From a bacterium (GTDB lineage: Bacteria; Patescibacteriota; Minisyncoccia; Phycocordibacterales; UBA9973): a DNA stretch of 64,000 nucleotides. The notes below the pieces were generated by a model. The model worked only from the letters and a program-made list of their open reading frames with translations. It was not told the DNA's origin and searched no databases. Both the position numbers and the translations under genes were made by a program. The stretch is taken from the NCBI GenBank assembly GCA_021824345.1, contig JAKAKW010000004.1, positions 11,019 to 75,018 of the forward strand, read 5' to 3'. Positions 9,493 to 34,289 of this stretch are shown in pieces. The first letter of the stretch is position 1. Every line of letters begins with the position of its first letter.

Positions 9493-11214
9493 TTAATACA
9501 CTTCCTTGTTGTAGCACTCTTCGCAGTATACGGTTTCGGGGCGGTCGGGGGCGAATGCGGTATCAAATTCGTTCAAACATTTGCCAGCGTGGCTGTGGCC
9601 GGCTTTCTGGCACATGCAAGAACGGTGCCAGAGCCTGCGCGGATTGCGGAGCAAAAACCGCTCCTGCCGCCTGCAAGAAAAGCATTTGTCCGGTATCGGA
9701 ATGTTCAGAATCCTGTATAAGGAAAGTTCAAGCGGGGTAATCTTAAAGGCTGTGGTGCATAGAGGATAATTTTTTGCTTCTTCCGGCGAATTCTGTGAAG
9801 AACACCCTATTACTTCATTGATAATGCCATCATTTGCTTCTGTGATAGTTTTCGGCATATTCTCACCGGCAAGAGTGATTTTATAATCTCTCTCAGGCCT
9901 CTCATACCATGAATATCCGGCCTTCACGGCCTCTTCTTTTGTCAGCGGGAAATAGTCCTGAGCCATAGATTCATTATAGGCGAAAGGCGAAACCTCAGCC
10001 GGGAAATATTCTCCCCACTCCCCTGTTTTTCGCATATGCTCTATTATTTTCTCTTTCAGTTCCGCATATTCTTCTTTTGAGTACTGCTTGTTCAATATGC
10101 AGTACTTCCCCTTCTCTAATCCGAAACAGCCGAAGCAGTCGCTGGTGCTGAAACACATATCGCAATAGCAGGAATCCACGATAGTGTTGAAGCAGCTGCG
10201 GATAAACATAGATCTGTGAGGAGAATCTACTCCCTGTATCTCATAGCATCTCTCACCTACTATAATTTCCGTACAATCCATGCAATCTTGAGTATCAAGC
10301 CACGCATCTTGCATATAGGCAGTGTCTTTGTTTTCTTTGCAATTAAATACTTCTTTCGCTCGCTGGCAATTCTCAATATAATCCCCGGTGGAATCTTCCA
10401 CTTGCGATCCGTGGTAATATTTCACTGGAATTTTTAATCGCAGTTTGTTCCTTTTTTCCTTTGCTTCGCGCACAGAATTCCTATCAAATGAAAAATCGCT
10501 TAATTTTTTTTCATACTCTTCCTTATTAAGCTTTTCATTAAACCAGCAATATTGCTTCTTTCTCAAACCCACGCAGCCGAAACAGTCCAAACACCCCTTG
10601 CAATCGTCACAGAACCAGAGTGATACGGAATCTGCGCAATCTCGGCACCAAGCGCACTTGGAGCAATGGTCAAGATTAATGCATTCGTAACAGAATTCGC
10701 TCTTGAAAACCATATAGCAATCACCGCAGAAATGGCTGTTTTGATTCCAGCTTCCATACATGCATTTCTCACACATTCCGCTGGTCACCAGCATGTAACA
10801 CTCCTTGTTGTCCTGAGATTGATTAGTGTATTCGCTATTTACGCTTCTGGAATTTACCATCGCCAGATGGGGCGCTTCTCTGCGCAACTCTTCATATTGT
10901 TCAAAAAATGGCCGATTAAAATCAAAATTCCGCCAGTACTCTTTGGCCTCAAAAGCGTCCGATTTCCAATATTCCTGCTCGTATACCGGAAAGGGCGCAT
11001 CCTCCCGATAAATGGAAATTATGGATTTTCCGGTAGCATCGCATTTCCGCTTGTAAAAATTGTACTCGTTTCGGTCCAAAAGCCGGCGAAGATATCGGCA
11101 ATCCGGACACAGGGTCGGCGGAGGCACGCCGATCTTTCCATAAAACCCGAAATCGTCCGGCTTTATCGCGAAATCTTTTTGACAATTTTTGCACTGTCTT
11201 TTTTCTTCCTTCAT
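9493..11214 (-). CDS. Cysteine-rich multi-zinc-ribbon family protein, array A copy 1 (unknown function)
   Basis: 573 aa. N-terminal module 'CKNCQKDFAIKPDDFGFYGKIGVPPPTLCPDCR'; core 'CDDCKGCLDCFGCVGLRKKQYCWFNEKLNKEEY' and '...CFGCFGLEKGKYCILNKQYSKEEY'; C-terminal 'PIPDKCFSCR...WHRSCMCQKAGHSHAGKC...YCEECYNKEVY'. Confidence 0.85.
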   Translation of the reverse strand: MKEEKRQCKNCQKDFAIKPDDFGFYGKIGVPPPTLCPDCRYLRRLLDRNEYNFYKRKCDATGKSIISIYREDAPFPVYEQEYWKSDAFEAKEYWRNFDFNRPFFEQYEELRREAPHLAMVNSRSVNSEYTNQSQDNKECYMLVTSGMCEKCMYGSWNQNSHFCGDCYMVFKSEFCYECINLDHCSKCAWCRDCADSVSLWFCDDCKGCLDCFGCVGLRKKQYCWFNEKLNKEEYEKKLSDFSFDRNSVREAKEKRNKLRLKIPVKYYHGSQVEDSTGDYIENCQRAKEVFNCKENKDTAYMQDAWLDTQDCMDCTEIIVGERCYEIQGVDSPHRSMFIRSCFNTIVDSCYCDMCFSTSDCFGCFGLEKGKYCILNKQYSKEEYAELKEKIIEHMRKTGEWGEYFPAEVSPFAYNESMAQDYFPLTKEEAVKAGYSWYERPERDYKITLAGENMPKTITEANDGIINEVIGCSSQNSPEEAKNYPLCTTAFKITPLELSLYRILNIPIPDKCFSCRRQERFLLRNPRRLWHRSCMCQKAGHSHAGKCLNEFDTAFAPDRPETVYCEECYNKEVY

Positions 11215-11219
11215 TTATT

Positions 11220-12980
11220 TCAGTATACCTCTTTTCTATAGCACGGCTCGCAGTAAATTTTCAGGTTCTTGGACGGGTCATATGTGGTCAATATTTCCTT
11301 TCCGCATTTGGAACATATGCGCTTCCATATTTTATATGGACTCCGCTTATGAAAACGCTTCATCAGCCGCGCTCGGGGACTTTTCGCAGGTAAAGGAATG
11401 GAATTTCGGCGGTAAAAATCAAGTTCGCTTTTTATTATCCTGAAAGGCCGGCCGGACTCCTGGCAGATTATAGCCATATTAAGAATATCATCCGTTGCGT
11501 CTTTTATATCATCCGTAAGATCCTTGCCAGAAATAACCTTCATGCCTTTTACATCCATGCTCACTTCGTAATCCCGAAGACGAGCGCCCAGTTTCCCTGC
11601 TTTTTCTTTGGAAACCGGCATCATAGCATACCCGTAAGTGTCGTGGTAATAGAAGAAAGAATCCTCCAGCCGCAAGAACTCCCCGTAATTTCCATCTGAA
11701 AGCATCTTTACTTTTATCTTATCCACCAGCTTCCAATATTCTTCGGGAGAGTATTGCTTATTCAGCACGCAGAAATTCTTCTTCTTTAAGCCGGAACACC
11801 CGAAGCAGTATTTACAATCCGAACATTCAAAGCAATATTCCACCTGCCGGCAATTACTGACGAAATATGAGGCAATGGCAAGATTGGAAAAAAGCCCTTC
11901 GGCAACATTGTAGCAAAGCTCGCCGGGGCCGAATATGGTCACGTCCATGCAATCGTGCGTGCCAATTATGTCGGAACTGTGCCGCACATTCTCATTCCGA
12001 TAGAAAGTTATCAAATATTTCATGCCGGAGGCATTGTATACATCCACGCAGTTTTTACTGTCTGATATGTGACTGCCGAGCGATCCGGGAGAGTTGCGTA
12101 TAATAAGATCCCGATGGATAGAGTCTTTTTCTATCATTTCCGAAAATTTACGCTTGTATTCTTCTGCCACCGATCTCCTGCCAAGATCTATTTCAGAAAT
12201 TTTTTGCATATACTCTTCTTTGGAAAACTGTTTATTGAGAAAACAATATTGTTTGCTCCGCAAGTTTGCGCACATAAAGCAGTCGTGACAATCATGGCAG
12301 TCAAACAAAAATTTTGAATTTATACAGCTTTTGCAATTTTGAATATATTGAGACTCATAGATGCGGTCGGAATCTAATATATCGTAGCAATGCTCTAAAT
12401 GGTCCACTCGCAGGACGTCTACGCAATCCTTAGCATATGCCGCCCATAGTCCATAGGACACGTCTTCGGAAACGCCTATCACGGAAGAAACATAGCAGTT
12501 TTTGACGTCCATGCTCTCCACGCTGTAATCACTGTTTATGATGTTCTTGTTGTATCTGGATATAGCCATATGGGGTACGTCGTGGAGCAATTTGTTCAGC
12601 TGTTCATAGAAAGATTCATTTGCATCATATACGCGACCGAATCCTGTTGCGTCCCAAGCATTCACATCCCACCAGTATTTGTTGTCATAAATTTTATATT
12701 GGCTTTTCGCGTCCAACTGGGAAATCAGGCTTTCCCCAGAATGAGCGGAGCATTCTTTTTTATAGAACTGGAAAATATTGGCAAGCATGGCCATGCGCCT
12801 GCGCGCCCGGCATTCCGGACATTCATTGAGAGGAGGAACTCTCAATTTTTTTAAATACGATATGTCCTCAGCGCTGATATCAAAAGAATTCCCGCAAGTT
12901 TCACAAGTGCGTTTTTGCGGAGAAAGATTTTCATATATCTTTTCCAGGGCTTCATCAAATTTCGGAGTTTTTGTCTGCAT
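11220..12980 (-). CDS. Cysteine-rich multi-zinc-ribbon family protein, array A copy 2
   Basis: The listed ORF extends to 13055, but the family-conserved start is MQTKTPKF at 12980, 1 nt after the stop of copy 3. Motifs 'CETCGNSFDISAEDISYLKKLRVPPLNECPECR', 'CHDCHDCFMCANLRSKQYCFLNKQFSKEEY' and C-terminal 'CSKCGKE...YCEPCYRKEVY'. TGA stop. Confidence 0.8.
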   Translation of the reverse strand: MQTKTPKFDEALEKIYENLSPQKRTCETCGNSFDISAEDISYLKKLRVPPLNECPECRARRRMAMLANIFQFYKKECSAHSGESLISQLDAKSQYKIYDNKYWWDVNAWDATGFGRVYDANESFYEQLNKLLHDVPHMAISRYNKNIINSDYSVESMDVKNCYVSSVIGVSEDVSYGLWAAYAKDCVDVLRVDHLEHCYDILDSDRIYESQYIQNCKSCINSKFLFDCHDCHDCFMCANLRSKQYCFLNKQFSKEEYMQKISEIDLGRRSVAEEYKRKFSEMIEKDSIHRDLIIRNSPGSLGSHISDSKNCVDVYNASGMKYLITFYRNENVRHSSDIIGTHDCMDVTIFGPGELCYNVAEGLFSNLAIASYFVSNCRQVEYCFECSDCKYCFGCSGLKKKNFCVLNKQYSPEEYWKLVDKIKVKMLSDGNYGEFLRLEDSFFYYHDTYGYAMMPVSKEKAGKLGARLRDYEVSMDVKGMKVISGKDLTDDIKDATDDILNMAIICQESGRPFRIIKSELDFYRRNSIPLPAKSPRARLMKRFHKRSPYKIWKRICSKCGKEILTTYDPSKNLKIYCEPCYRKEVY

Positions 12981-12981
12981 A

Positions 12982-14730
12982 TTAATACACCTCCTTGTTG
13001 TAACAATCCTCGCAGTATACGGTTTCGGGGCGGTCGGGGGCGAATGCGGTATCAAATTCGTTCAAACATTTGCCAGCGTGGCTGTGGACGGCTTTCTGGC
13101 ACATGCAAGAACGGTGCCAGAGCTTCATGGGATTGCGTTTGGCAAGGCGCGCTTCGTGCCGGCAGAAGAAGCATAGATGCGGGAGCGGAACACCGAGTTT
13201 TTTATACAGCTTCAGTTCCCCGTCGGTTATCTTGAATGCCCCGCGGCAACGCCCGCCGGAATTATTCCGATTCGCGCATCCTATTACTTCGGAAAGAATC
13301 GAATCCCGCACATCGCCCAATCTGTCCGGCAGATCTTTCGCCTCAATGGTGAGGGAATACTCGTTCTGCTTTTTGTCCCGCCACCTGTACCCCCTCGAGA
13401 GAGCCTCCTCCTTGGTCAAAGGAAAATAATCCTGGGCCTGGGTTTCGTTATAACAGAATGGAGAAAGTTCCGCCGGGAAGAATTCGCCGTACTTGTATGT
13501 CAAACCATTCCTGTCCACATAAGGCATATTCATCATATGCTCTTTGATTTTTGGAACCAACGCTTCATACTCCTCCTTTGAATATTCCTTGTTTAAAATG
13601 CAATGCTTCTTATTCCTTATTCCAATACAGCCGAATAAATCGGAACAGCCGTGGCAATTGAACGAATATTCCACGTTATTTGAGCTGTACACCACGCTGG
13701 TGAATAAGTTGCGGTAATTTCCAATGCCGGTATCAAATGCTTCATACGCCAGCTCTGCGTCCCCCAGACCCGGTCCAATATCGTAGCCGTCTTTTACCAC
13801 ATGGGCCACCCAATGCGCGAACTTGCAGTCTTCTATGTTGCCATTTCCGTCAAAAATAATATGGCAATTTTTTACCCCGTCCAAATTATCTCCGGTGGAA
13901 TTTATACTCCTAATCTGGTTTGCAAATCTATTGACGGCTCCGAGTACAAGCTTGTCAAATTTTTCTTTTAATTTTGAAATTTCGGCATAGCTTGTGAGAT
14001 CGATTTCAGACAAGCGCTTAGTGTATTCTTCCTTGCTTAATGGTTCATTCCACATGCAATATGATTTGTTGCGCTGGTTTGTACAGCCCAAACAATTGGT
14101 ACAGCCATGGCAATCGTAAAGAAAATATGAATCCACGCAGGCCTTGCATTTCATGGAATACATAAGGCGATAGCAGTCTTCGCAAAACATATCCTCGTAA
14201 CAGAGTTCTGATTTGTGAGTCACATAAGTGTCTGAGCAGTCTTTGGTCTCGGAGATGCGATTGGAATAGAAAGTACGCTCAATTTTCCATGACCCGGAAG
14301 ACATGTAGCTTTCTCTTGAATCCTCCGCCACATTGCAGTAATCGCTGTTTACGGCATGGATGTTAGAAAGAGCCTGTTGGGGAAAATCCCTATATAACTC
14401 GCTCCATTGCTGAAAAAATGGTTTTGAAAAATCATAGTCCCGCCCGTAAGAAAGTTGGTCCCAATTGTCGCTCCACCAATAACTTGAATCATATGTTTTC
14501 AGCTTTTCATCCGGCGGATACATGCTGATTATGTCCTCGTCGTGCCCCGGCGCGTCACATTTGCGCCTGAAAAGAGACATTTCGTTGCGCCAGCTTATGC
14601 GTCGAACAGTACGGCAATCGGGGCAAAAAGTCGGCGGGGGCACGCCGATTTTCTTGTAGAAATTAAAATCCTCCGGCTCAATAGCGAAGCTCTGCTTGCA
14701 ATTCTGGCATTGCCGGGTTTCGGATTGCAT
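12982..14730 (-). CDS. Cysteine-rich multi-zinc-ribbon family protein, array A copy 3
   Basis: 582 aa with 'MQSETRQCQNCKQSFAIEPEDFNFYKKIGVPPPTFCPDCR'. Its C-terminus is nucleotide-identical over about 115 bp to copy 1. Confidence 0.85.
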   Translation of the reverse strand: MQSETRQCQNCKQSFAIEPEDFNFYKKIGVPPPTFCPDCRTVRRISWRNEMSLFRRKCDAPGHDEDIISMYPPDEKLKTYDSSYWWSDNWDQLSYGRDYDFSKPFFQQWSELYRDFPQQALSNIHAVNSDYCNVAEDSRESYMSSGSWKIERTFYSNRISETKDCSDTYVTHKSELCYEDMFCEDCYRLMYSMKCKACVDSYFLYDCHGCTNCLGCTNQRNKSYCMWNEPLSKEEYTKRLSEIDLTSYAEISKLKEKFDKLVLGAVNRFANQIRSINSTGDNLDGVKNCHIIFDGNGNIEDCKFAHWVAHVVKDGYDIGPGLGDAELAYEAFDTGIGNYRNLFTSVVYSSNNVEYSFNCHGCSDLFGCIGIRNKKHCILNKEYSKEEYEALVPKIKEHMMNMPYVDRNGLTYKYGEFFPAELSPFCYNETQAQDYFPLTKEEALSRGYRWRDKKQNEYSLTIEAKDLPDRLGDVRDSILSEVIGCANRNNSGGRCRGAFKITDGELKLYKKLGVPLPHLCFFCRHEARLAKRNPMKLWHRSCMCQKAVHSHAGKCLNEFDTAFAPDRPETVYCEDCYNKEVY

Positions 14731-14736
14731 ATATAA

Positions 14737-14745
14737 ACTTTACCA
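14737..14745 (-). promoter_or_regulatory. Extended -10 box TGGTAAAGT, 6 nt upstream of the copy-3 ATG (internal, leaderless-type promoter)
   Basis: The minus strand reads GGGCGGAGGGATACCCTCCGCCC-TAGAATTTTTACGCAAACG-TGGTAAAGT-TTATAT-ATG. The same cassette repeats upstream of array B at 33613-33663. Confidence 0.45.
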
Positions 14746-14764
14746 CGTTTGCGTAAAAATTCTA

Positions 14765-14787
14765 GGGCGGAGGGTATCCCTCCGCCC
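14765..14787. repeat. Palindromic hairpin repeat family 2 (GGGCGGAGGGTATCCCTCCGCCC) in the only sizeable intergenic gap of array A; on the minus strand it is followed by a T5 run (terminator-like)
   Basis: Perfect 10-bp stem. On the transcribed (minus) strand it is followed by TAGAATTTTTACG. Confidence 0.7.
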
Positions 14788-14834
14788 TCCCTCGGCCCTT
14801 CTCCGCCTTGGCTTCCAAATTAAAACCATTGCCG

Positions 14835-16577
14835 CTAATATACTTCTTTCTGATAGCAAGATTCGCAATACACTGTCTCCGGTTTATCGGGCGCATAGCT
14901 GGTTTCAAATTCATTTGGGCATTTGTCTCGGTGTCCGTGATTGGATTTTTCGCACATGCAAGAACGGCTCCAAAGCTTCATGGGATTGCGCTTGGCAAGC
15001 CTGCCGTAATGCCGGCAATTTGAACACAGGCGCGGAAGAGGCAAGCCGAGTCTGCGGTAAAATCCCAGCTCGTCCGGAATAATGCGAAACGCTTCGGTGC
15101 ACTGTTCGTTACATTTTCCTTTGTGCGCGCACTCAACAGACTTGTTTAATATATCGTCTTTTACATCGCTTATATCGTCCGGCAATTCCTCATTTTTTAT
15201 TTCAATTTCGTAGTTTTTCGATTCTTTTTCTTTCCATCCGTATCCCCTTTCCCGCGCCTCCTCTTGAGTCAAAGGGAAGTATTCTTGGGCAATGGTTTCG
15301 TTATATGCCCAGGGAGAAATTTCCATCGGGAAAAAATCGCCGTAGACATAAGCCCTGCCTTTCGCGTCAATATACGGCTTTTCCGCCATTTGCTTCACGA
15401 TTTCATCCTTTAGTTTGTTGTACTCCTCTTTTGTATATTGCTTGTTTAATATGCAGTATTCTTTTCCGCGCAATCCTATGCAACCGAACAAGTTCGAAGA
15501 TGCCTGACAAGAAAAACAATACGCGCAATTGTTGGAACTATAGGTGGTAATGATGGCAAGATCGTTCATTCCCACGTCGGTATCCACTCCTTCGTAGCAC
15601 AGCTCGGTTTTGTAATTGCCGTAAACGTCATAATTTTCCTTGATAAAAAGCGAATGAGCGGAAAATCGGCAATTTTCCGCCTCGTCTGATATATCAAAGC
15701 AATTATGGGAATTTTTGGATTTGGTAATGTTATGTCCCGTGCAATTCTCGCATTTTACGATGTTGGCATAGCGGCGAATGGCTTTTCCGCGTATTTCACT
15801 TTCATATTTTTCTCTTATTTTTTCTCTGTTTGCATAGCTGGATAGTTTCAAAGATTTTAGTTTGTTTTCATAATCATCTTTAGTCAGCTGTTCATTGAAA
15901 TAACAATATGACTTGCTGACCAGATTAGAACAGGCAAAGCAGTTATTGCAATTTCGGCATCCGTATAGATACGAAGAATTCACGCAAGAGGTGCAGCTTT
16001 CGCTCCCCATCACGCTGAAACATTCTTGGCAATCCAGAATATCGTAGCAGAGTTCATTGTGAGGAGAAGTAAGCATATCTTGAGAATCTTTTGAAAAATT
16101 GCTTCGGTTCGAATACCGTACGTTTTCGTCATATCCGCACCCGAACACGAGATAGCAATTCTTGTTACCGTCCACATAATTCGTGTATTGAGAGTTCACG
16201 GAATTGATGGTTTGGAGGGCCGGCAAGGGCGTTTTCTTCCACAACTTGTCATATTGCTCAAAGAAAGGTCTGGACGGGTCATATTCAATGCCGTAATCAG
16301 TCGGATCCCATTTGTCGCTCCACCAGTACTCCTTATCATACACAGTGTAGGGAGAATCCGGCGCGTACATGCTTAGCATCTCCTCGCTTCTGCCGGGCGC
16401 ATTGTTTTTTCTTTTATACAGCGACCGTTCATTCCGGAAAGCCATCCTCCTGACAATTCTGCATTCCGGACACCACGTCGGCGCCGGCACCTTTATGCGC
16501 TCGTAAAACCCGAAATCATCCGGCTCTATGACGAAGTCCTTTTTGCAATTTTGACATTGCCAGGTTTCGGATTGCAT
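14835..16577 (-). CDS. Cysteine-rich multi-zinc-ribbon family protein, array A copy 4
   Basis: 580 aa: 'MQSETWQCQNCKKDFVIEPDDFGFYERIKVPAPTWCPECR', 'CRNCNNCFACSNLVSKSYCYFNEQLTKDDY', 'CAYCFSCQASSNLFGCIGLRGKEYCILNKQYTKEEY', C-terminal '...YCESCYQKEVY'. Confidence 0.85.
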   Translation of the reverse strand: MQSETWQCQNCKKDFVIEPDDFGFYERIKVPAPTWCPECRIVRRMAFRNERSLYKRKNNAPGRSEEMLSMYAPDSPYTVYDKEYWWSDKWDPTDYGIEYDPSRPFFEQYDKLWKKTPLPALQTINSVNSQYTNYVDGNKNCYLVFGCGYDENVRYSNRSNFSKDSQDMLTSPHNELCYDILDCQECFSVMGSESCTSCVNSSYLYGCRNCNNCFACSNLVSKSYCYFNEQLTKDDYENKLKSLKLSSYANREKIREKYESEIRGKAIRRYANIVKCENCTGHNITKSKNSHNCFDISDEAENCRFSAHSLFIKENYDVYGNYKTELCYEGVDTDVGMNDLAIITTYSSNNCAYCFSCQASSNLFGCIGLRGKEYCILNKQYTKEEYNKLKDEIVKQMAEKPYIDAKGRAYVYGDFFPMEISPWAYNETIAQEYFPLTQEEARERGYGWKEKESKNYEIEIKNEELPDDISDVKDDILNKSVECAHKGKCNEQCTEAFRIIPDELGFYRRLGLPLPRLCSNCRHYGRLAKRNPMKLWSRSCMCEKSNHGHRDKCPNEFETSYAPDKPETVYCESCYQKEVY

Positions 16578-16589
16578 AAGATTATCTTG

Positions 16590-18296
16590 CTATAATACTT
16601 CTTTTATATAGCACTTGCTACAAAATATTCTTGGAGCGTCTTCCTTCCGGTAATGAGTTCTGAATATTACTCCGCAATTATCACACGATCTTTCCCCTAG
16701 CGTCATTTGCCACGCCCATCTTTTTATCTTTTCATCAATCCTGCAAAACGGACAACGCCGAGGCAATGGCAAATTGTGTTTCTTTAAAAATTGAATCTCC
16801 TGGTGGATTATCTTAAATCCCCGACTGCATGTAGCACATTGTATGGATTCTTCAGTTATATTTTCAGGCGCATCCTTAGAATTATCCGGCAAATCGCCTG
16901 ATTTCATAGTAATGGAATATTCCCTTGAATCAGGTTCCAGCCATGATAGATGCTTTTTAACTGTCTCCTCCTTTGATTTTGGAAAGAAAAGCGAAGCAAG
17001 GGTATCGTTATATGCGTGAGGAGACATGGTTATGGGAAAAAATTCCCCGTATCCATACTCTAAGCCATTCTCGCTTTTGTACGGCATTTCGGCCATCTGC
17101 TTAATTATTTTTTCCCTTATCTTAAAATATTCTTCTTTTGGATACTGCTTGTTTAATATGCAATATTTGCCGTTCCTTAAGCCCACGCACCCGAATAAAT
17201 CAGAGCCGCCAAAGCACAAGATTGTATAGTCCGAGGAATGCAATCCATGGCCTCCGTCCTGGCTGAATTTCACATTTTCTGTTTCAGAGCCGACAGTTAC
17301 GCATTCGTACATATTTTCTGCGGCTGTCCATCCATCCATATAGTCATATGAATTTTTCACTATTCCGTTTTTTATCAGCATTAGAAATTTAGAGTCCTCC
17401 GACAGTGTGACGTCGTAACATTCCCGGCAGTTTTTTGACTGGAAAACATAGTTGCCCGTGACGTTTTTGGAGAAATCGTCATAAATCGGGCGCGGCAGAT
17501 TTGATTTCCAGAAATCGCGCACTTTTTCTCGCATGGATTCGTAAGTGGAATATGAACCCAAATCTATTTCGCTTAATTTTTTCTCATACTCTTCTTTTGC
17601 AAGCTGTTCATTAAAAAAACAGTAGGACTTATTGCGCAAATTCACGCATCCAAAACAATTGTTGCAGTTGCGACAGTCTTTTATGAAATAGCAGTCCATA
17701 CAGCTGATAGTATTGCCCTCCGCGGTGAAAATGTTATAGCTTTTAAAACCATTCGTAACGTCAAACGTGTTTTCGCATTCCCAAGTCATGGAAGAATCAT
17801 ATATTCTTTTGCTTCTCTTTAAGAAGAAGCCGTAAGCCGTATCTTCGCACCCTTCGGTGAAAAATACGAGGTAGCAATTTTTGCACCATCCGGCAAAGTT
17901 GGTATATGGAGAAAGCTTGCGCGTAATCTGATCAATAGGCTGGGCTCTAAGAGGAACCTGTTCAAACAGTTTTGTAAATTGCTCAAAAAATGGCCTAGAG
18001 AAGTCGTATTCTATCGCATATTTTTTTGGATCCCATTTATCGCCCCACCAGCAATCATGGCAATAAATACGATATTTATTCTCCGGCGAGTACATGGAAA
18101 TGCCTTCCTCTCCGCATAAATCGCATTTGCGTTTGAAAAGTTTGGTGGATTTCATCCACACTAGGCGCCTTTGAAGACGACATCTCGGACAGAACGTCGG
18201 CGGAGGCACTTTGATTTTTTCGTAAAACCCGAAATCATCCGGCTCTATGACGAAGTCTTTCTTGCAGTTTTGGCATTGTTTGGTAGCGGATTCCAT
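16590..18296 (-). CDS. Cysteine-rich multi-zinc-ribbon family protein, array A copy 5
   Basis: The listed ORF extends to 18395; the conserved start MESATKQCQNC at 18296 lies 2 nt after the stop of copy 6. N-module with a second ribbon 'CDLCGEEGISMYSPENKYRIYCHDCWWGDKWD'; C-terminal 'CDNCGVIFRTHYRKEDAPRIFCSKCYIKEVL'. Confidence 0.8.
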   Translation of the reverse strand: MESATKQCQNCKKDFVIEPDDFGFYEKIKVPPPTFCPRCRLQRRLVWMKSTKLFKRKCDLCGEEGISMYSPENKYRIYCHDCWWGDKWDPKKYAIEYDFSRPFFEQFTKLFEQVPLRAQPIDQITRKLSPYTNFAGWCKNCYLVFFTEGCEDTAYGFFLKRSKRIYDSSMTWECENTFDVTNGFKSYNIFTAEGNTISCMDCYFIKDCRNCNNCFGCVNLRNKSYCFFNEQLAKEEYEKKLSEIDLGSYSTYESMREKVRDFWKSNLPRPIYDDFSKNVTGNYVFQSKNCRECYDVTLSEDSKFLMLIKNGIVKNSYDYMDGWTAAENMYECVTVGSETENVKFSQDGGHGLHSSDYTILCFGGSDLFGCVGLRNGKYCILNKQYPKEEYFKIREKIIKQMAEMPYKSENGLEYGYGEFFPITMSPHAYNDTLASLFFPKSKEETVKKHLSWLEPDSREYSITMKSGDLPDNSKDAPENITEESIQCATCSRGFKIIHQEIQFLKKHNLPLPRRCPFCRIDEKIKRWAWQMTLGERSCDNCGVIFRTHYRKEDAPRIFCSKCYIKEVL

Positions 18297-18298
18297 GA

Positions 18299-20005
18299 CT
18301 ATATTATTTCTTTCTGGTAACACTCTACGCAATATACTATTTCCGGCCTTTCGGGAGAATACGGAGTTTCCATTTCCTTTCCGCAATTGTCGCACTTGCG
18401 CTTGAAAAATTTTCTTGGAAGAGTTCTACCGATGCGAGTATTGTGTCTGGCAAGAGGAGCACTACGAGGTATCGGTAGGCCGACTTTTCTGTAAAAGGAA
18501 AGCTCCATTGGGATTATTTTATACGCCTTGCCTGTTTCTTCGCATTTTAAAACCTTGTCAAGAATATCGTCGCCTACATCTTTTATATCGTCCGGTATCA
18601 AATAATCAGAAAATTCATATGTGGTATCGGATTTGTAATCGCTCCAGACAAAGCCCCTTTCAATGGCCTCTTCTTTTGAAAGAGGAAAATATTCGCAGGC
18701 CGCAGTTTCATTGTATCCGTGAGGGGCGAAACCAGCCGGAAAAAATTCTCCGTATCCATATACCTTTCCAGATTCGTCAATAAAAGGCATATCGTTCATG
18801 TGTTTCTTTATTTTCGCCAACAGTTTATCATATTCCTCTTTAGAATATTTTTTATTTAGAATCACATATTCCCCTCCCCTTATCCCGGAACATCCGAAGC
18901 AATAGCTGGAACTGGTAGTCATATAAGAGTATTCCACATTGGCAATTGTCATTTTCTTCAACGGGTCGCTGGAAGTGCATCCGAGAAGGGCTTTAGAATT
19001 ATATGCTCCGCCGCTGTGGGCGGACTCGTACACCAGTTCGGCGGCGCCGAAGCAGGAGCAATCCCAGCAGTCTCGTATCCAGCCTCCAATATAGATATTC
19101 TTTGAATCCTCAATTTTTGTTACTTGCCAGCAATTCTTCGCATTTTTGCATTCTGAAAGCTCATTGCCGGTTGAATTTACCGTTTTAATTATAAAATTTT
19201 CCCTGTGAGGTTGCTTTTCCCAGACAAGACTGCTTTGTTTCTTCCACCATTCAAGGCCGTTATGGGAAGAATACGGATACTCCGCGATAAATTTTTCATA
19301 GGCTTCCTTTGAATATTGCTCGTTCATTATGCAATATTGCTTGTTCCGTAGGCCCGCACAAGCAATGCAGTTGCTGCAATTATGGCAGTCGTAACAAAGA
19401 ATTGAATTGAGGCAGTTCTCGCATTCTTCGGAGAAATGGGTAAAGTAACATCTTTCGCAATGTATATCAAAAGAGCAATATTCCGGATTTATCGCCCAGC
19501 AGTTGTCAAAACTATTTTTGCCGTAAAGCTCGTATGTATTGTATGCCGAATCTTCATTATAATGTCCTCCTACATTTAAATAGCAATTTTTGTCGTCCGC
19601 CTCCTGATTTACCCAATCGCTATTGACGCAATTCAAGTTATATATAGAGATATGAGGGACTTTGAAAAACAATTCTCTCCATTGCTCAAAAAATGGCCTT
19701 GAAAAATCGTATTCCTGTCCGTAAGAATAGGGATCCCATTTGTCGCCCCACCAGCAATTGGTGCAGTACATGGGATATTTTTTATCCGGAGAAACCCTTG
19801 ATACCACTTCCTTTCCGCACAAATCGCACTTGCGCTTGTACAAGTGCCTTTCATTGCGAAATGCCAGCCGGCGCTGTTCCCTGCAATCTACACAGAACGT
19901 CGGCGGAGGCACTTTGATTTTTTCGTAAAAAGATAAATCTTCCGGCTCAATAGCGAAGCTCTGCTTGCAGTTCTGGCATATTCGCTTCTCATTCTTATCA
20001 TCCAT
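18299..20005 (-). CDS. Cysteine-rich multi-zinc-ribbon family protein, array A copy 6
   Basis: 568 aa: 'CQNCKQSFAIEPEDLSFYEKIKVPPPTFCVDCR', second ribbon 'CDLCGKEVVSRVSPDKKYPMYCTNCWWGDKWD', core 'CYDCHNCSNCIACAGLRNKQYCIMNEQYSKEAY', C-terminal 'CDNCGKEMETPYSPERPEIVYCVECYQKEII'. Confidence 0.85.
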   Translation of the reverse strand: MDDKNEKRICQNCKQSFAIEPEDLSFYEKIKVPPPTFCVDCREQRRLAFRNERHLYKRKCDLCGKEVVSRVSPDKKYPMYCTNCWWGDKWDPYSYGQEYDFSRPFFEQWRELFFKVPHISIYNLNCVNSDWVNQEADDKNCYLNVGGHYNEDSAYNTYELYGKNSFDNCWAINPEYCSFDIHCERCYFTHFSEECENCLNSILCYDCHNCSNCIACAGLRNKQYCIMNEQYSKEAYEKFIAEYPYSSHNGLEWWKKQSSLVWEKQPHRENFIIKTVNSTGNELSECKNAKNCWQVTKIEDSKNIYIGGWIRDCWDCSCFGAAELVYESAHSGGAYNSKALLGCTSSDPLKKMTIANVEYSYMTTSSSYCFGCSGIRGGEYVILNKKYSKEEYDKLLAKIKKHMNDMPFIDESGKVYGYGEFFPAGFAPHGYNETAACEYFPLSKEEAIERGFVWSDYKSDTTYEFSDYLIPDDIKDVGDDILDKVLKCEETGKAYKIIPMELSFYRKVGLPIPRSAPLARHNTRIGRTLPRKFFKRKCDNCGKEMETPYSPERPEIVYCVECYQKEII

Positions 20006-20009: not shown

Positions 20010-22241
20010 TCAAGAATCGAGCATTTTCCTTAATATGTCTTCCGGCACCTCTTTCACCTTTTTGGAATACGGCGGAACGGGAATCTCATTTTTTCCCGAA
20101 GTAGAGATTGTTTCGATATCGTTTTCCGGAGTTGATTCCGATCCGGGATCACTCTGTATCGGTTCATCTTTCTGTTCCGGTTGCGGTTCCTGTTCCGGCT
20201 CTGATTCTGGTTCTGGTTCTGGTTCCGACATATCAGGTTCCGCCGGAGAAACCGGTTCCAAAACATCCTTGGCGGGTTCCTCCTCTTTTTTCTCCGGCAT
20301 TGCTTCAAAAATCAAATCTTTAAGCTTATTCATATCTTCTGCGCTGGCTGCCCGATCTTCTTTTTTAGGCTTTTCAGCTTCAGCGGAATGCTTTTCCTCT
20401 TTAAGAGATTCAAGTGAAATTGGTTCCGGCCCAGGATCCTTTGGGCGCTCTTCGCTTTGAATTTTTTCTTCTTTTGGAACAGGTGGAATATTGTCATTCA
20501 AGGTCTTGTTCAGTATTTCTCTCAAAGCAGAGGTATCTCTTTCTTTTTTTGCCGGCGGTTCCTCCTTCTTTTGCTGAAACTTTTTTCCGTTCTGGTTTTT
20601 CTTAAAAACCGCCTTAAGCGAAGAAAAGCCGTTTGTTTTTTTGCCATTGTTCGGCACAGAGCTCGGCTCTTCCTTGAATTCTATTCCCAAATCCGCCAGA
20701 GGCTTGAAAAACCTTCCTTCATCTCGGCCGGAGCCGGTATTGGAGGAGCCGGACAAGGGCTTCAATTCCCCCGCTTTTATTTTGGCAATGCAATCCCGGC
20801 AATATATGGGCCTGCCGGGCTCGGGTCTGAAAGGCACCTTGGTCGGCTGTCCGCATATCGAGCACACCGCGTCAAACTTCTCCACTCCGGTAGTGGAACC
20901 GGAAGAGCTTGCGTCATCTTCTCCAAGAGACATTCCGCTCCAGTCATTTATCTCCTTTTCAACCGTATCGCGAGGACGGCAGTACAGTTCCCTGGACTTT
21001 CTTATGACCTCCGCTTCCGCTTCCGGATTTTCGCCTATTTTCACCATGGGCGGAAGCGTCCGGGCAGAAAACGGGCGGGAGGTGACTCCGTCTATCATCA
21101 GCTTGATGTATATCTTGTAGTTCGGGAGATTCACTATGTCCTCGGGGGTGAATTCCGGTTCAAATTCTTTTTCCAGAAATTCAGCGTCGTCCGCTCCCAC
21201 TCGAAACACGATCATGGTGCCGATGTTGCCGAAAATGGCGTCCCGAACCGAAGAGCTTTCCTTGGTGACAAGCTGGGCGGTGTATTGGTGCGCCACGGTA
21301 AGGTTTAAGCGATATTTTCGCGCTTCGGAAAGAATGCCGGCGAAGGCATCGGTAACGAAGTTTTGAAATTCGTCTACGTACAAATAAAAGTCCTTGCGTT
21401 CTTCCTCGGGTATGCGCACCCGTTCCATGGCGGCCAGCTGGATTTTGGTAATGATCATTCCGCCGAGAAGCGCGGAGTTGTCTTCGCCTATGCGACCCTT
21501 GGAAACGTTCACCAGGAAAATTTTCCCTTGGTTCATTAAGTCAAAAATATTGATGGTGCTCTTGGACTGCCCCACGATATTGCGGATGATAGAGGTGGAA
21601 AGAAATTGGCCGACTTTGTTTTGAATGGGAGCAATGGCTTCATTGCGGAACTTATCCTGCCACTCTTCGTACTCGTGCACCCAGAAAGCCTTAATGACCG
21701 GATCTTTCAGGTTGCTGATGATTTTTTGCCGATAGTCTTTGTCCACCAGCATCCTGGGAATGCCGAGCATGGTTGTGCCGGGAGTATCAAGAAGCGCGAG
21801 AATTGCATTGTTCAAAATGTATTCCATTCGGGCGCTCCAGGCGTTGGCCCAAATTTTTGTGAAAATGCCCATGAGGCCGGATGCCACCAGGTGCTTGTAT
21901 TTCGGATCAGGCAATTCCAAAACATTGAATCCGATGTGATACTCGGTGTCCGCCGGGTTGAAATACACCACATCTTTCAAGCGATGCTGGGGAATGGCGG
22001 AAAGCACCGCTTCCACGTTTTCCCCGTGCGGGTCCACCAAGCAGACGCCGTCGCCGTTCTTGATGTTCTGAATGATCATGTTGAACATGAGCACCGATTT
22101 ACCGGTGCCGGACTTTCCGAGAATATACACGTGCTGGCGCCTATCCTTCCGCTTTATGCCGAAGAGCTTGTTTTGGTCGCGAAAAGTGGTTTGGCCCAGG
22201 TATGTTAAATCCTTGTTATATGGGAGTTCCGTAGCGTCCAT
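20010..22241 (-). CDS. FtsK/HerA-superfamily P-loop ATPase, copy 2, with a C-terminal zinc-ribbon and acidic low-complexity extension
   Basis: Walker A 'ILGKSGTGKSVL' then 'LVDPHGEN'; Walker B 'FYLYVDEFQNF'. The roughly 330-aa C-terminal tail carries 'CSICGQPTKVPFRPEPGRPIYCRDCIAKI' and a 'PEPEPESEPEQEPQPEQ' stretch. Its stop lies 4 nt from the start of array copy 6. Confidence 0.6.
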   Translation of the reverse strand: MDATELPYNKDLTYLGQTTFRDQNKLFGIKRKDRRQHVYILGKSGTGKSVLMFNMIIQNIKNGDGVCLVDPHGENVEAVLSAIPQHRLKDVVYFNPADTEYHIGFNVLELPDPKYKHLVASGLMGIFTKIWANAWSARMEYILNNAILALLDTPGTTMLGIPRMLVDKDYRQKIISNLKDPVIKAFWVHEYEEWQDKFRNEAIAPIQNKVGQFLSTSIIRNIVGQSKSTINIFDLMNQGKIFLVNVSKGRIGEDNSALLGGMIITKIQLAAMERVRIPEEERKDFYLYVDEFQNFVTDAFAGILSEARKYRLNLTVAHQYTAQLVTKESSSVRDAIFGNIGTMIVFRVGADDAEFLEKEFEPEFTPEDIVNLPNYKIYIKLMIDGVTSRPFSARTLPPMVKIGENPEAEAEVIRKSRELYCRPRDTVEKEINDWSGMSLGEDDASSSGSTTGVEKFDAVCSICGQPTKVPFRPEPGRPIYCRDCIAKIKAGELKPLSGSSNTGSGRDEGRFFKPLADLGIEFKEEPSSVPNNGKKTNGFSSLKAVFKKNQNGKKFQQKKEEPPAKKERDTSALREILNKTLNDNIPPVPKEEKIQSEERPKDPGPEPISLESLKEEKHSAEAEKPKKEDRAASAEDMNKLKDLIFEAMPEKKEEEPAKDVLEPVSPAEPDMSEPEPEPESEPEQEPQPEQKDEPIQSDPGSESTPENDIETISTSGKNEIPVPPYSKKVKEVPEDILRKMLDS

Positions 22242-22325: not shown

Positions 22326-24263
22326 TTACTGTTTGGGCTGTTCCCCTTCGGGCTTATCCCCTTCCTTGAATTCCGCGTCGCGGACTTCGGGGCCTTGCTC
22401 TTCCGGAGTTTTAGCCTCTCCAGCGCCAGGGTTTGCTCCCGGCTGTCCGGCACCCGGCTGGCCTTGCTGATTCATGGCCTGGCCGATTTTGGACATCTCG
22501 CTGGAAAGCTCTTCTGTGGCCTTCTTGATTGCTTCGGCATCAGTGCCGTCTTTCACGCCTCGCAGGGCCGTAATCTTATCGTTTACGCTCTTCTTTACGT
22601 CTTCGGGAATCTTGGCCTCGTTGTCTTTCACAGCCTTCTCTGCGGTGTAAATCATCATTTCGGCGGTATTTTTTACATCCACGATTTCTTTCTTTTTCTT
22701 GTCTTCATCTGCGTGAGCTTCCGCATCAGCTTGCATTTTCTTAATGTCTTCATCCTTTAAGCCGGAACTTGCCTCTATGCGGATGGACTGCTCCTTGCCG
22801 GAAGCCTTGTCTTTGGCTTTTACGTTCAGAATACCATTGGCATCCACATCAAAAGTGACCTCCACCTGCGGAATTCCGCGAGGCGCCGGAGGAATGCCGT
22901 CCAATATGAACCGGCCGAGAGATTTGTTGTCGGCTGCCATAGGACGTTCCCCTTGCACGATGTGAATTTCAACGGAAGTTTGATTGTCTGCCGCAGTGGA
23001 AAATACCTGCGATTTGGAAGCCGGGATAGTGGTATTTTTATCAATCAGTTTTGTAGCTACGCCTCCCAGAGTCTCAATGCCCAAGGAAAGCGGAATAACA
23101 TCAAGAAGCAGAACATCGCGGACATCTCCCTGCAAAACTCCGGCCTGCACGGCGGCTCCGAGAGCCACCACCTCGTCGGGATTTATGGACATATTCGGCT
23201 GTCTGCCAAAAAGATTTTTTACCGCCTCAATAATGGCCGGCATGCGAGTTTGTCCGCCCACCATGATAATCTCGTTTATTTCGTTCATCTTAAACGGCGA
23301 CGCTTCAAGAGCGCGCTTGGTAATTTCAATGGAACGGTCGATAAGATCTTTGGCCAGAGTCTCCAAAGTGGCCCTGCTCATCTTCAGGAGCAGGTGTTTT
23401 GGACCGCTTGAATCGGAAGTGACGAATGGAATATTAATTTCCGCCTCAAGGGTGGTGGAAAGCTCATGTTTGGCCTTCTCGGCCGCTTCGCGCAAGCGCT
23501 GGTTGGCCAAAGGATCCTTGGTAACATCTATTCCGGATTCTTTCTTAAACTCATCCGCTATCCATTGCACCATTCTGCGGTCAATGTCGCCTCCTCCCAT
23601 GTGGCTGTCTCCGTCGGTAGATTTCACTTCAATCACATCTTCTCCGATTTCCAACACGGAAACGTCAAAAGTTCCGCCTCCGAAGTCGTATACCACTATC
23701 TTTTCATTTTTCTTTTTATCAAAACCGTATGCGAGAGCGGCGGCGGTGGGTTCATTTATGATGCGCTTCACATCCAAGCCCGCGATAGCTCCGGCGTCCT
23801 TAGTCGCTTTTCTCTGGGAATCGTTGAAGTAAGCCGGAACGGTAATCACCGCTTCAGTAATCTTTTCTCCAAGCTTAGCTTCCACATCGGACTTAATCTT
23901 CTGAAGAATCATGGCGGAAATTTCTTCCGGACGATAGAATTTGTCACCCATCTTTACCTGCACTCCGCCATCTTGTCCCGCTTGAATCTTGAATGAAGCG
24001 GACTTTAAGTCATTCTGCACTCCGGGATCGTCAAAGCGATGTCCCATGTAGCGCTTGATTTCAGAAATGGTATTTTCCGGGTTAGTTACCGCCTGGCGCT
24101 TGGCAAGAAGCCCCACGAGCCTATCGCCGTTTTTGGTCTGCGCAACCACCGAAGGAGTAGTGCGATTGCCCTCCACATTTTCAACAATCTTCGGCGCTCC
24201 GCCCTCAATTATTGCAACCGCAGAGTTTGTAGTTCCTAAGTCAATTCCTATAATTTTACTCAT
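22326..24263 (-). CDS. dnaK: Chaperone DnaK (Hsp70)
   Basis: '[14 protein letters not shown]', '[10 protein letters not shown]' and the substrate-binding domain with a charged lid; 645 aa. Confidence 0.95.
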
Positions 24264-24561: not shown

Positions 24562-25080
24562 ATGTCAAGAAAACCGAGCTATTCCCAAAAAATCCTTAAA
24601 ATATTGGCTCAAAAACCGGCTATTTCTGTTAAATCTATAAAGGAAGATAAGAGCTCAAAGGAAAACTACGCATTGGCAAGATCGGTCAAGAGCCTCATAG
24701 ATTCCGGTTGTATTGAGGTGGTTTCCTCAGACAATCAAAAGTACTTAAAAATCACAAAAAAGGGTCGGAACAAGCTGAATTGTCTGAAGCTGGAAGGCCA
24801 GGAGGCGCTTGTGTCCTTTGCATGGGATGGATTGTGGAGATTTATAATTTTGGACTTGCCGGAAGAGCGGAAAAGCGAACGAGAAGCCTTGCGCTATCTC
24901 TTGAAAAAGGCGAATTTCGTATGCGTTAAAAACGCTGTGTGGGCCTCCCCCCACCCTTACGAGCACCTGTTCGGAAGCATTAAAAAGGACTTAGGGCTTG
25001 GCGCCGAGATGATGATAATGGTAACAGACTCGGTGGACGAAGACACCAAGAAACTTTTGTTTGAGTCCTTCGGAAAGTAA
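24562..25080 (+). CDS. PaaX-family-like transcriptional regulator (N-terminal winged helix plus PaaX_C-like domain)
   Basis: N-terminal wHTH-like 'ILKILAQKPAISVKSI...LIDSGCIE'. C-terminal 'WDGLWRFIILDLPEERKSEREALRYLLKKANFVCVKNAVWASPHP' resembles the PaaX C-terminal signature (W.G.W..V.F..PE..R..R..LR..L...GF..L...VW..P). Confidence 0.5.
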   Translation: MSRKPSYSQKILKILAQKPAISVKSIKEDKSSKENYALARSVKSLIDSGCIEVVSSDNQKYLKITKKGRNKLNCLKLEGQEALVSFAWDGLWRFIILDLPEERKSEREALRYLLKKANFVCVKNAVWASPHPYEHLFGSIKKDLGLGAEMMIMVTDSVDEDTKKLLFESFGK

Positions 25081-33683: not shown

Positions 33684-34289
33684 TTATTCTCCGCCCCCCG
33701 CTTCGTATTCAAACACGTTTACCCGGGCCGGGCGAAGAACTCGCTCGCCCAGTTTATAACCTTTTTGAATTACCTGCGCGATTTTATGGTCAAGATCCTT
33801 CTTGTCTGTCTTCATTGAATCCACGCTATGGTGTAAATTAGGATCAAAAGCGTCGCCGTCTTCTCCGAATTCCTTTACCCCGTATTCCTCAAAAACCGAA
33901 TTCATTTGCGAATGGATGTATTCCACTCCCTTGCGCCAATTTTCGTCCACCTTGTTCCAGGCATCTTTGTTGGCAAAAGCCATCTGAAAGCTGTCCATCA
34001 CTGACAAAAACCTGGTAAGAATCCTTTCCCGCACCGATTCGGAAAAACTGGCTCTGCGCATCTCCTCTTCTTTTTTGTAATTGGCGAAATCAGCCCGCTC
34101 TTTTTGCCAGCCTGTAAGGTATTCTTCTTTTTCCTTTTTGCAAATTTTGAGTTCCTCCCGAAGCTTTTTAACGGTCTTTTTCAGATCCTCTTCCCCGTCG
34201 GCATTATATTCAAATTCCAAGACCTCCGAATCGTCATTTTTCGGAAGCTCCGGCTCTTTATTTTCGTCTTTTTGCTCTTCGTCTTTCAT
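33684..34289 (-). CDS. grpE: Nucleotide exchange factor GrpE
   Basis: Coiled-coil N-terminus and C-terminal 'HHSVDSMKTDKKDLDHKIAQVIQKGYKLGERVLRPARVNVFE' (GrpE beta-sheet domain signature). Confidence 0.85.
   Translation of the reverse strand: MKDEEQKDENKEPELPKNDDSEVLEFEYNADGEEDLKKTVKKLREELKICKKEKEEYLTGWQKERADFANYKKEEEMRRASFSESVRERILTRFLSVMDSFQMAFANKDAWNKVDENWRKGVEYIHSQMNSVFEEYGVKEFGEDGDAFDPNLHHSVDSMKTDKKDLDHKIAQVIQKGYKLGERVLRPARVNVFEYEAGGGE

Follow-up and report, generated by a model that had tools for sequence, protein, structure and literature searches.

Small zinc-binding 'fingers' built around two CxxC pairs have been described in several protein contexts. Those of the PF23477 (zf_Tbcl_2)/TIGR04272 type are found in small proteins of Methanosarcina and at the C-termini of some helicases and ATPases, and small Methanosarcina mazei proteins with CxxC-x17-CxxC spacing bind zinc, as measured by inductively coupled plasma mass spectrometry (PMC12704099). 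Separately, a survey of 2,918 genomes of the Patescibacteria counted 5,713 genes for VirD4-like 'type IV coupling proteins' (T4CPs), or about two per genome, of which 148 lie near virB4, and its authors raised the exaptation of these homologues for some other function (PMC12102498); Cys-rich proteins of the kind considered below receive no mention in that survey. Both subjects bear upon a 64,000-nucleotide stretch of DNA (hereafter 'the window') from a bacterium of the Patescibacteriota (assembly GCA_021824345.1, contig JAKAKW010000004.1, positions 11,019 to 75,018), which carries eleven paralogous genes for Cys-rich proteins, arranged in two tandem arrays (A1-A6 and B1-B5). The copy designated A6 was taken as the focal gene, and its parts are as follows.

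18299..20005, minus strand: focal gene copy A6, encoding a soluble protein of 568 amino acids (aa) with 36 Cys (open reading frame (ORF) list and translation)
19856..19993, minus strand: N-terminal finger A (residues 5-50), with C10/C13 on the knuckle of a beta-hairpin and C38/C41 where a helix begins in the AlphaFold2 (AF2) model
19736..19843, minus strand: N-terminal finger B (residues 55-90), C60-x2-C63-x17-C81-x2-C84, read from sequence
19277..19687, minus strand: core repeat 1 (residues 107-243), read as about eight coils of a 12-residue Cys/Ser ladder plus a cap helix
18809..19240, minus strand: core repeat 2 (residues 256-399), a degenerate copy of core repeat 1 by hhalign, with a cap helix at 389-405
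18548..18787, minus strand: conserved acidic linker (residues 407-486), YGEFFP...YNET...YFPL.KEEA...G..W...PDDI.D
18416..18547, minus strand: C-terminal finger A' (residues 487-530), Cys-less in A6, where C488 alone is kept and A516 and A519 replace the second pair
18302..18415, minus strand: C-terminal finger B' (residues 531-568), C538-x2-C541-x17-C559-x2-C562, in a short form

An identical A6 protein is present in public metagenome assemblies, and a sequence check detected neither a transmembrane (TM) segment nor a signal peptide in it. The family proteins are all soluble by sequence analysis, and a membrane or secreted location was ruled out for them by a hydropathy check that likewise found no TM segment or signal. 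A preliminary description of this DNA had counted eleven family members and quoted a number of strings from A6; the count is borne out, every copy lying on the minus strand, and all of the strings are found exactly in the 568-aa translation.

The same description proposed that each protein is built from two homologous terminal modules, placed around a duplicated Cys-rich core. This plan stands, with profile E-values that range from 1e-15 to 1e-28, apart from the label of 'double zinc ribbon' that was attached to the modules (considered below). In an hhalign self-alignment of a 39-sequence profile, the N-terminal module (residues 9-85) matches the C-terminal module (487-563) with an E-value of about 2e-15, and the core half at 107-243 matches that at 256-399 with an E-value of about 1e-23; profiles constructed from the 11 paralogs give E=2.6e-22 over 81 columns and E=3.7e-28 over 89 columns for the corresponding comparisons. 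The repeats can also be recovered from A6 alone, where BLASTP aligns the two modules with 35.5% identity over 76 aa (E=3.6e-17) and the two core halves with 42% identity over 38 aa (E=1.7e-9). Because the matches persist in hhalign when all of the Cys residues are masked to X (E=2e-14 for the modules and E=7.5e-22 for the core halves), while the negative controls (module against core, and reversed sequences) return E-values of 0.006 or higher, the internal repeat exceeds what generic CxxC spacing would produce, and chance CxxC similarity was ruled out as its source.

The order of the two finger types is likewise the same at both ends, as had been described: A aligns with A' at E=4e-16 and B with B' at E=1.3e-10, while homology between fingers A and B themselves was rejected (E>0.001), so that the A+B unit appears to have been duplicated as a whole. 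A single tandem duplication cannot generate the order module-core-core-module, which implies at least two separate events, one internal duplication of the two-finger unit and another of the core. The two core halves of A6 do not carry equivalent motifs, however. Core 1 ends in CxxCxxCxxCxGLRxKxYCIxNxQYSKEEY, which runs into its cap helix, and core 2 ends in FGCxGhxxxxY(C/V)ILNKxYSKEEY. The earlier statement that A6 contains two copies of the same Cys-rich motif was therefore correct as regards the duplication of the core, and incorrect as regards the second copy, which is degenerate ('SYCFGCSGIRGGEYVILNKKYSKEEY', with 2 Cys); the full C..C..C..C form of the second motif is present in other paralogs and not in A6.

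The AF2 model of A6, calculated from the 39-sequence alignment, has a mean predicted local distance difference test score (pLDDT) of 84.5 and a predicted template modelling score (pTM) of 0.87. In this model, the first CxxC of each finger is located between two short strands (a beta-hairpin knuckle), and the second CxxC is found at a helix N-terminus (C38/C41 with helix 39-47, C81/C84 with helix 82-86, and C559/C562 with helix 560-566), an arrangement that corresponds to the treble-clef topology. A classical zinc ribbon shares with these fingers the two CxxC pairs, the small size and the placement of the first pair on a beta-hairpin knuckle, but it presents its second pair on a second beta-hairpin, and a test for knuckles at both pairs in the AF2 secondary structure failed, with the second pairs at helix N-termini. 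The only Pfam families that are matched by the fingers, PF13451 (zf_Tbcl) and PF23477, both carry the label 'probable treble clef'. The 'zinc ribbon' of the preliminary description is accordingly best replaced by a predicted treble clef. Weak matches to phage proteins annotated as 'putative zinc-ribbon domain' were returned from BFVD (best E=3e-3, none at or below 1e-3); these cover the small fingers only, and two of them superpose closely, with a root-mean-square deviation of 0.5-0.6 A over approximately 40 columns. A further likeness, to the tandem treble-clef-type fingers of LIM/CRP proteins, is confined to insignificant matches of B' (E=0.4-0.7), which are the only PDB sequence-profile matches; no Pfam LIM domain is matched, and the ligand spacing differs.

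Within each module, the two finger types have distinct relatives. Finger A is nearly universal: all four of its Cys residues are invariant in 39 of 39 aligned sequences, and the site is intact in 224 of 229 homologues. Its second CxxC is followed directly by an Arg-rich helix (CR-x2-RR-x3-RN, within the longer motif C-x2-C-R-x2-RR-x3-RN), in which R42 is invariant and R45, R46, R50 and N51 are each conserved at 90% or more. Fingers A and A' share with PF13451 the pattern C-x2-C ... C-x2-C-R. They differ in the family-specific signature F-x-I-x-P-x-D-x2-FY-x-K-x3-P-x-P of finger A and in scores that remain below threshold: PF13451 gives no match to A6 at E<=1 and 18.5 bits against paralog B3 (gathering cutoff 24), and some orthologs have precomputed or weak matches. 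At best, therefore, A and A' would be divergent relatives of PF13451. The assignment of B and B' is firmer, as both share the exact CxxC-x17-CxxC spacing of PF23477/TIGR04272. Residues 531-566 (B') score 31.3 bits against PF23477, above the cutoff of 27, and 30.6 bits against TIGR04272 (E=2e-7), which is under the stricter NCBIfam cutoff of 36; paralog B3 matches both families at residues 51-83. The four Cys residues of B' are invariant in 39 of 39 sequences, and the site of finger B is 100% conserved among 30 A6 orthologs.

Compared with the described members of PF23477/TIGR04272, the present finger belongs to a set of four in a protein of 570 aa and invariably accompanies a finger of the A type. 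It differs further in a long insert, C-x-C-x(4-25)-H-x-H-x(3-4)-C, which lies inside B' in half of the family (114 of 229 homologues; in the window A1, A3, A4, B1, B3 and B4, for example at 9493-9640), is variable in length and is absent from A6. This insert adds one Cys and two His to the Cys4 set and might create an additional site for metal. The Cys4 sites themselves presumably bind structural zinc. The terminal modules are basic, with a charge of +4 to +6 each.

Not all of the sites are retained in every protein, and the pattern of their loss turns out to be informative. In the window, site N-A (that of finger A) is intact in 11 of 11 copies and site C-B' in all copies except B2, while only A5, A6 and B3 retain a complete N-B, and C-A' has been lost from A2, A6, B2 and B5. 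The preliminary description had correctly noted the loss of N-terminal site B from A1, B1 and B4, a list that proves to be incomplete, because eight of the 11 copies (A1-A4, B1, B2, B4 and B5) lack it; it had also noted the loss of the first Cys pair of C-terminal site A from A6, B2 and B5, to which A2 must be added, and in these proteins both pairs are gone, with the first Cys (C488) alone remaining. B2 retains the fewest sites, N-A alone being intact. A census of 229 complete homologues from 81 loci extends these observations, with the following results.

N-A: both pairs in 224 of 229
N-B: both pairs in 121, neither in 108, half-sites in 0
C-A': both pairs in 181, neither in 41, half-sites in 7
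C-B': both pairs in 222 of 229

The absence of all four Cys residues from N-terminal finger B in 108 homologues is a further departure from the described PF23477/TIGR04272 proteins. Such nearly perfect co-loss of both pairs offers indirect evidence that the four Cys residues of each finger form a single site, which would be kept or lost as a unit.

It had been suggested that these losses reflect a constraint on the individual metal sites that is 'relaxed or shifting', and the corresponding alternative explanation, in which the paralogs of a redundant family are losing their Cys pairs slowly and haphazardly, deserves to be weighed here. In its favour, different copies lack different sites, and at least 12-14 state changes per site must be placed on the family tree, so that loss or gain has been repeated; moreover, B2, with an in-frame TGA codon and a single intact site, may truly be decaying. 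A haphazard process is nevertheless difficult to reconcile with the near absence of half-sites among 229 proteins, or with the distribution of the site states on a neighbour-joining tree that was calculated only from residues 87-486 and is hence independent of the fingers. On that tree the states are fixed within clades, with 14 changes for N-B (76 with shuffled tips) and 12 for C-A' (44 with shuffled tips). Among 30 A6 orthologs that share 53-70% identity, all have one site complement (N-A present, N-B present, C-A' absent, C-B' present), with C60, C63, C81 and C84 kept in 30 of 30 and C516 and C519 absent in 27-29 of 30. The Cys-less C-A' module of this orthogroup is conserved as well as the zinc-bearing ones (mean identity 0.65, compared with 0.68 for N-A and a protein mean of 0.59), its fold is still predicted with high pLDDT in A6, and the large arrays of distant genomes carry the same mixture of site types. 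Decay under relaxed constraint thus appears quite unlikely. All-or-none loss, clade-fixed states and a conserved Cys-less module together point to an ancient and stably inherited differentiation of paralog types, with B2 as a possible exception.

Between the modules lies a region (residues 90-486) that has no Pfam or NCBIfam match at E<=1, and the core itself (residues ~107-399) has no match among PDB sequences, PDB structures or BFVD structures. Both finger types are known domains, though only one of them scores above its Pfam cutoff; the core, by comparison, has no counterpart in Pfam or the PDB and represents an undescribed domain. Its sequence has a periodicity of 12 residues: the lag-12 signal has z=5.7-6.6 in core 1, with harmonics at 24, and z=3.7 in core 2, while the linker, used as a control, has no lag-12 signal. 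When the 12-mers are stacked, Cys or Ser residues fall at coil positions 3, 9 and 12 (for example 183/186, 195/198 and 207/210). In the AF2 model, strands of core 2 recur every six residues (at 355, 361, 367, 373, 379 and 385), with pLDDT of 93-98 over approximately 360-400, and a low-confidence model of the core alone is also rich in beta structure. A Foldseek search of that core-only model against the PDB returned only sub-threshold matches (best E=0.098), all of which are beta-helix proteins (RP2/TBCC/CAP, tailspikes, pentapeptide-repeat proteins and SufBD). The periodicity, the beta-rich model and the nature of these weak matches argue, with moderate confidence, that each half of the core is a beta-solenoid-like domain with a ladder of Cys residues. 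In its 12-residue periodicity, with Cys/Ser at coil positions 3, 9 (i, i+6) and 12, the core would resemble beta-helices with a 12-residue coil and a Cys ladder, for example the antifreeze protein of the beetle Tenebrio molitor, and, more generally, beta-solenoids such as pentapeptide-repeat proteins and the RP2/TBCC/CAP beta-helix; sequence and structure searches gave no significant match. It differs from these in its tandem solenoids, each with a conserved 'GLRxKxYCILNxQYSKEEY' cap. Because the proteins are cytoplasmic, a ladder held by metal or by packing is more likely than one of disulfides.

The density of Cys in the core also invites a reading in which its CxxCxxCxxC clusters bind iron-sulfur (Fe-S) centres rather than zinc, or serve some role that is not purely structural. 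The three-residue spacing and the (near) invariance of C207, C210 and C216 across the aligned homologues are compatible with such a role, as is the mostly anaerobic life of bacteria of the candidate phyla radiation (CPR), to which the Patescibacteria correspond. Yet no Fer4 or other Fe-S family of Pfam matches at E<=1, the spacing is CxxCxxCxxC without the CxxCxxCxxxCP of ferredoxins, and C213, C225 and C198 are exchanged between orthologs for Ser, Val, Ile, Tyr or His, which a packing ladder would accommodate better. Fe-S binding is consequently regarded as highly unlikely.

The acidic linker that joins the core to the C-terminal module is conserved, with near-invariant residues Y418, G419, E420, F421, F422, P423, Y431, N432, G451, W454, P471 and D472 and with pLDDT of 87-96 in ten-residue blocks. 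The net charges of the core and of this linker are -5 and -9, respectively, at the family median, and -11 and -12 in A6.

The family is large. A6 has 5,088 homologues in a database clustered at 90% identity, and a profile of the core alone, run against 1.84 billion proteins, retrieves 3,741 representatives at 50% identity, of which 1,650 have E<=1e-30; all 3,741 have a common architecture of approximately 550-600 aa. The named homologues are all from metagenome-assembled genomes of the Patescibacteria (Paceibacteria, Nomura-, Jorgensen-, Wolfe-, Brenner-, Gribaldo-, Kuenen-, Giovannoni-, Staskawicz-, Sungii- and Moraniibacteria) and are annotated as 'hypothetical' or, generically, as 'zinc-ribbon domain containing'. 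An occurrence outside the CPR, in a 'Burkholderiales' contig (locus L030, JAMPXW010000002.1), was rejected as a mislabelled or mis-binned Patescibacteria contig with 30.6% GC. By these sequence searches the family would be an uncharacterised one that is specific to the Patescibacteria. It was not found described as a whole in the literature, PADLOC has no match to it, and PHROGs gives a single marginal match, to a group of unknown function (E=0.002).

Several of the paralogs appear to be ancient orthogroups. A6 shares 50-70% identity with its orthologs from distant lineages and at most 43% with any paralog in the window (34-44% in an alignment of A1-A5 and B1-B5, each against A6). Reciprocal-best orthologs of A6, B3, B5, A5, A3 and B4 exist in three to five of six distant arrays, and for A6, B3, B5 and A5 these are closer than any paralog in the window. 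A4, B2 and B1 belong to a subgroup of more recent expansion. The remaining members of the two arrays, of which A6 is the sixth of six tandem copies in array A (9493-20005) and array B (25081-33606) comprises five, are located as follows.

9493-11214, minus strand: paralog A1
11220-12980, minus strand: paralog A2
12982-14730, minus strand: paralog A3
14835-16577, minus strand: paralog A4
16590-18296, minus strand: paralog A5
25081-26793, minus strand: paralog B1
26798-28510, minus strand: paralog B2, with an in-frame TGA at 27587-27589
28513-30207, minus strand: paralog B3
30212-31948, minus strand: paralog B4
31951-33606, minus strand: paralog B5

Copies A1-A5 (9493..18296) are arranged in tandem and almost abut. 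A mechanical ORF call for A5 (16590-18395) takes a GTG further upstream as the start, with 97 nt of overlap with A6; the true start is almost certainly the Met at 18296, which gives 568 aa, as in public assemblies (locus L083). That start follows the stop codon of A6 by 2 nt, which suggests translational coupling along array A. B2 is a single reading frame that is interrupted by one TGA codon ('VKYAN*GTKGLRDSYDV') at a position where A6, A1 and A3 have Trp; this looks like a change of TGG to TGA, and B2 is probably either a young pseudogene or the product of a sequencing error.

Tandem organisation is general for the family: among the 49 loci that span 15 kb or more, 39 carry between two and 12 copies, and of 172 pairs of adjacent family genes 170 are co-directional, separated by a median of 24 nt. 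In the window, the order on the minus strand is GrpE, B5-B1, an oppositely oriented PaaX-like gene, DnaK, ATPase 1, A6-A1, ATPase 2 and DnaJ, and the neighbours were assigned as follows.

6791..7903, minus strand: DnaJ, which ends the same-strand run (Pfam)
7942..9393, minus strand: ATPase 2, a soluble VirD4/TrwB/HerA-like protein of 483 aa, downstream of array A (Pfam TrwB_AAD_bind, DUF87, TraG-D_C)
20010..22241, minus strand: ATPase 1, a soluble VirD4/TrwB/HerA-like protein of 743 aa (Pfam and NCBIfam)
22326..24263, minus strand: DnaK (Hsp70), directly upstream of ATPase 1 (Pfam HSP70, E=1e-245)
24562..25080, plus strand: putative PaaX-like regulator with a Cas2-like middle domain, between the arrays (Pfam PaaX_M)
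33684..34289, minus strand: GrpE, directly upstream of array B (Pfam)

The two ATPases are of particular interest, as a VirD4/HerA-like ATPase is the commonest neighbour family by unbiased clustering (29 of 81 loci, compared with 11 for ABC ATPases and 9 each for DnaK and DnaJ). Among 38 such genes, 37 have the same orientation as the family gene closest to them, and 31 are no more than 1 kb from one, on either side of the arrays; the co-occurrence to be expected by chance is about 4%, a rough estimate that assumes two copies per genome of approximately 1 Mb. Both proteins of the window match TrwB_AAD_bind (39.3 and 35 bits, cutoff 20.5), T4SS-DNA_transf, TraG-D_C and DUF87 (HerA). They thereby resemble the nucleoside triphosphatase domains of T4CPs (VirD4/TrwB/TraD) and of HerA/FtsK, as judged by hidden Markov models, and correspond to the T4CP homologues that occur about twice per genome (PMC12102498). 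They differ from canonical T4CPs in the absence of an N-terminal TM anchor (with maximal 19-residue Kyte-Doolittle hydropathies of 1.13 and 1.04, and a Walker A motif that begins near residue 40), in their location among housekeeping and chaperone genes and not near virB4, and in the fusion of ATPase 1 to a zf_Tbcl_2 finger (residues 455-487, 50 bits), the same domain as B and B', and to a long E/K/P-rich tail. The stop codon of ATPase 1 lies 4 nt upstream of the start of A6.

The tail of ATPase 1 (20010-20770), approximately 250 aa of low-complexity sequence past the finger, contains 43 E, 34 K and 32 P in 253 aa and is also rich in Ser. Long-form ATPases of 600-1000 aa recur at other loci, and a CxxC-x15-19-CxxC finger is present in 12 of 38. 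The mislabelled L030 contig has the order ATPase 1, array, ATPase 2, DnaJ, as in the window; its ATPases (1289-2611 and 7608-9074) are 84-86% identical to those of the window, while its DnaJ is 59% identical and its family member matched to A6 approximately 43%. From these values the ATPases would appear to be under unusually strong constraint. The two ATPase types of that contig are about 45% identical to each other and, if taken as a proxy, suggest that ATPase 1 and ATPase 2 are ancient paralogs.

The likeness to coupling proteins raises the possibility that the family proteins are secretion substrates, that is, effectors that are recognised by VirD4-like proteins and exported to host cells by the T4SS (type IV secretion system) of the Patescibacteria. 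The ATPases are indeed homologous to T4CPs (TrwB_AAD_bind, T4SS-DNA_transf and TraG-D_C) and operonic with the arrays, the C-terminal modules are basic, and the T4SS is important in the epibiotic growth of Patescibacteria (PMC12102498). However, the ATPases have no TM anchor, no virB4-like gene is found among the recurrent neighbours at the 81 loci, few T4CP homologues of the phylum (148 of 5,713) are near virB4, and the T4CP is non-essential for epibiotic growth (PMC12102498). The ancient, conserved orthogroups are also unlike fast-evolving effectors, and tightly zinc-folded proteins of 570 aa would be poor candidates for export. Secretion is therefore considered a decidedly improbable role.

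The chaperone genes of the window suggest another possibility, namely that the family members are holdases or co-chaperones whose activity depends on zinc or redox state, comparable to the zinc centre of DnaJ or to Hsp33 and co-expressed with GrpE, DnaK and DnaJ. The arrays of the window are inserted in a chaperone operon (GrpE, five copies, DnaK, an ATPase, six copies, an ATPase, DnaJ), DnaK and DnaJ are each present at 9 of 81 loci, and the proteins contain 30-43 Cys each. This synteny looks lineage-specific, though, as chaperone genes are missing from several of the larger arrays in other lineages (L001, L007, L008, L014, L029, L034 and L081), and the association with ATPases is about three times commoner. 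The family has no Pfam similarity to DnaJ_CXXCXGXG or to chaperone families; the Cys-rich domain of DnaJ (PF00684) matches the neighbouring DnaJ and no family protein. A function in proteostasis is quite unlikely.

Several further genes were recorded around the arrays. The rest of the window is occupied by housekeeping genes (DnaB, CysRS, AlaRS, RpoA, S4, ClpB and BipA), together with three minus-strand ORFs at 38759-41277 and 46196-47623 (451, 382 and 475 aa) that have no Pfam match at E<=0.001. A homologue of the PaaX-like gene recurs beside the family at seven of the 81 loci. In a distant CPR genome (L001/L002, 1-4097), three genes lie ahead of the ATPase gene upstream of the array (a sigma70_r4/HARE-HTH gene, a DUF8128 gene and a small ORF), and the array is followed by two unrelated ORFs (414 and 561 aa) that have no Pfam match; the sigma70_r4/HARE-HTH gene recurs at seven loci.

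The explanation that best accommodates these results begins with the architecture. From N- to C-terminus, each protein consists of fingers A and B, a short linker, a first solenoid-like repeat with its cap, a second repeat with its cap, the acidic linker, and fingers A' and B'. The two basic 'heads' of fingers would be kept at a distance by the double solenoid, an acidic and rigid spacer. Each protein might then act as a zinc-stabilised, two-headed adaptor or client, with the neighbouring hexameric ATPase and/or nucleic acid as its binding partner, and with different specificities supplied by the different paralog types. In a broader form of this proposal, arrays of five to a dozen such proteins and the two conserved soluble ATPases would constitute an undescribed, CPR-specific cytoplasmic machine, for which the 'orphan' T4CPs of the Patescibacteria have been exapted as the motor, and in which paralog types with differing sets of fingers would serve as specificity adaptors or as substrates, for example in the handling of nucleic acid. 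The parts of this explanation are not equally secure: the architecture and its evolution are held with high confidence, the two-headed adaptor or client function is tentative, the machine is a possibility still open to considerable doubt, and the explanation as a whole is judged to be somewhat better than an even proposition.

A number of observations weigh against it. Core 1 has pLDDT of only 60-70 in the model of A6, the AF2 model of the core by itself, calculated from 10 paralogs, is poor (pLDDT 65.7, pTM 0.44), and a Foldseek search of the full model against the PDB yields no significant structural neighbour (best E=5). The suggestion that the heads may bind nucleic acid derives solely from their charge and Arg-rich helices, and the dnaK/dnaJ/grpE surroundings in the window provide a competing hint as to function. 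Finally, an ATPase gene is within 10 kb in approximately 36% of the sampled loci, which represents a frequent and not an obligatory link, and the loci from which all of the neighbourhood counts were taken are phylogenetically non-independent.

For the biology of these organisms, the first point is one of economy: CPR genomes are approximately 1 Mb in size, yet 11 genes (about 19 kb, or 30% of the 64-kb window) are spent here on one uncharacterised family, and the mix of paralog types is the same in related organisms. The family also provides a genomic partner for the approximately two VirD4-like proteins per Patescibacteria genome that are unlinked to T4SS genes and have been noted as being of unknown or exapted function (PMC12102498). 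That Cys4 sites are lost all-or-none and in a clade-fixed manner, with retention of fold and sequence, amounts to a natural experiment on zinc fingers that become metal-independent. If the proposal of a CPR-specific machine is true, it would explain the large share of DNA that is given to this family in genomes that are otherwise reduced.

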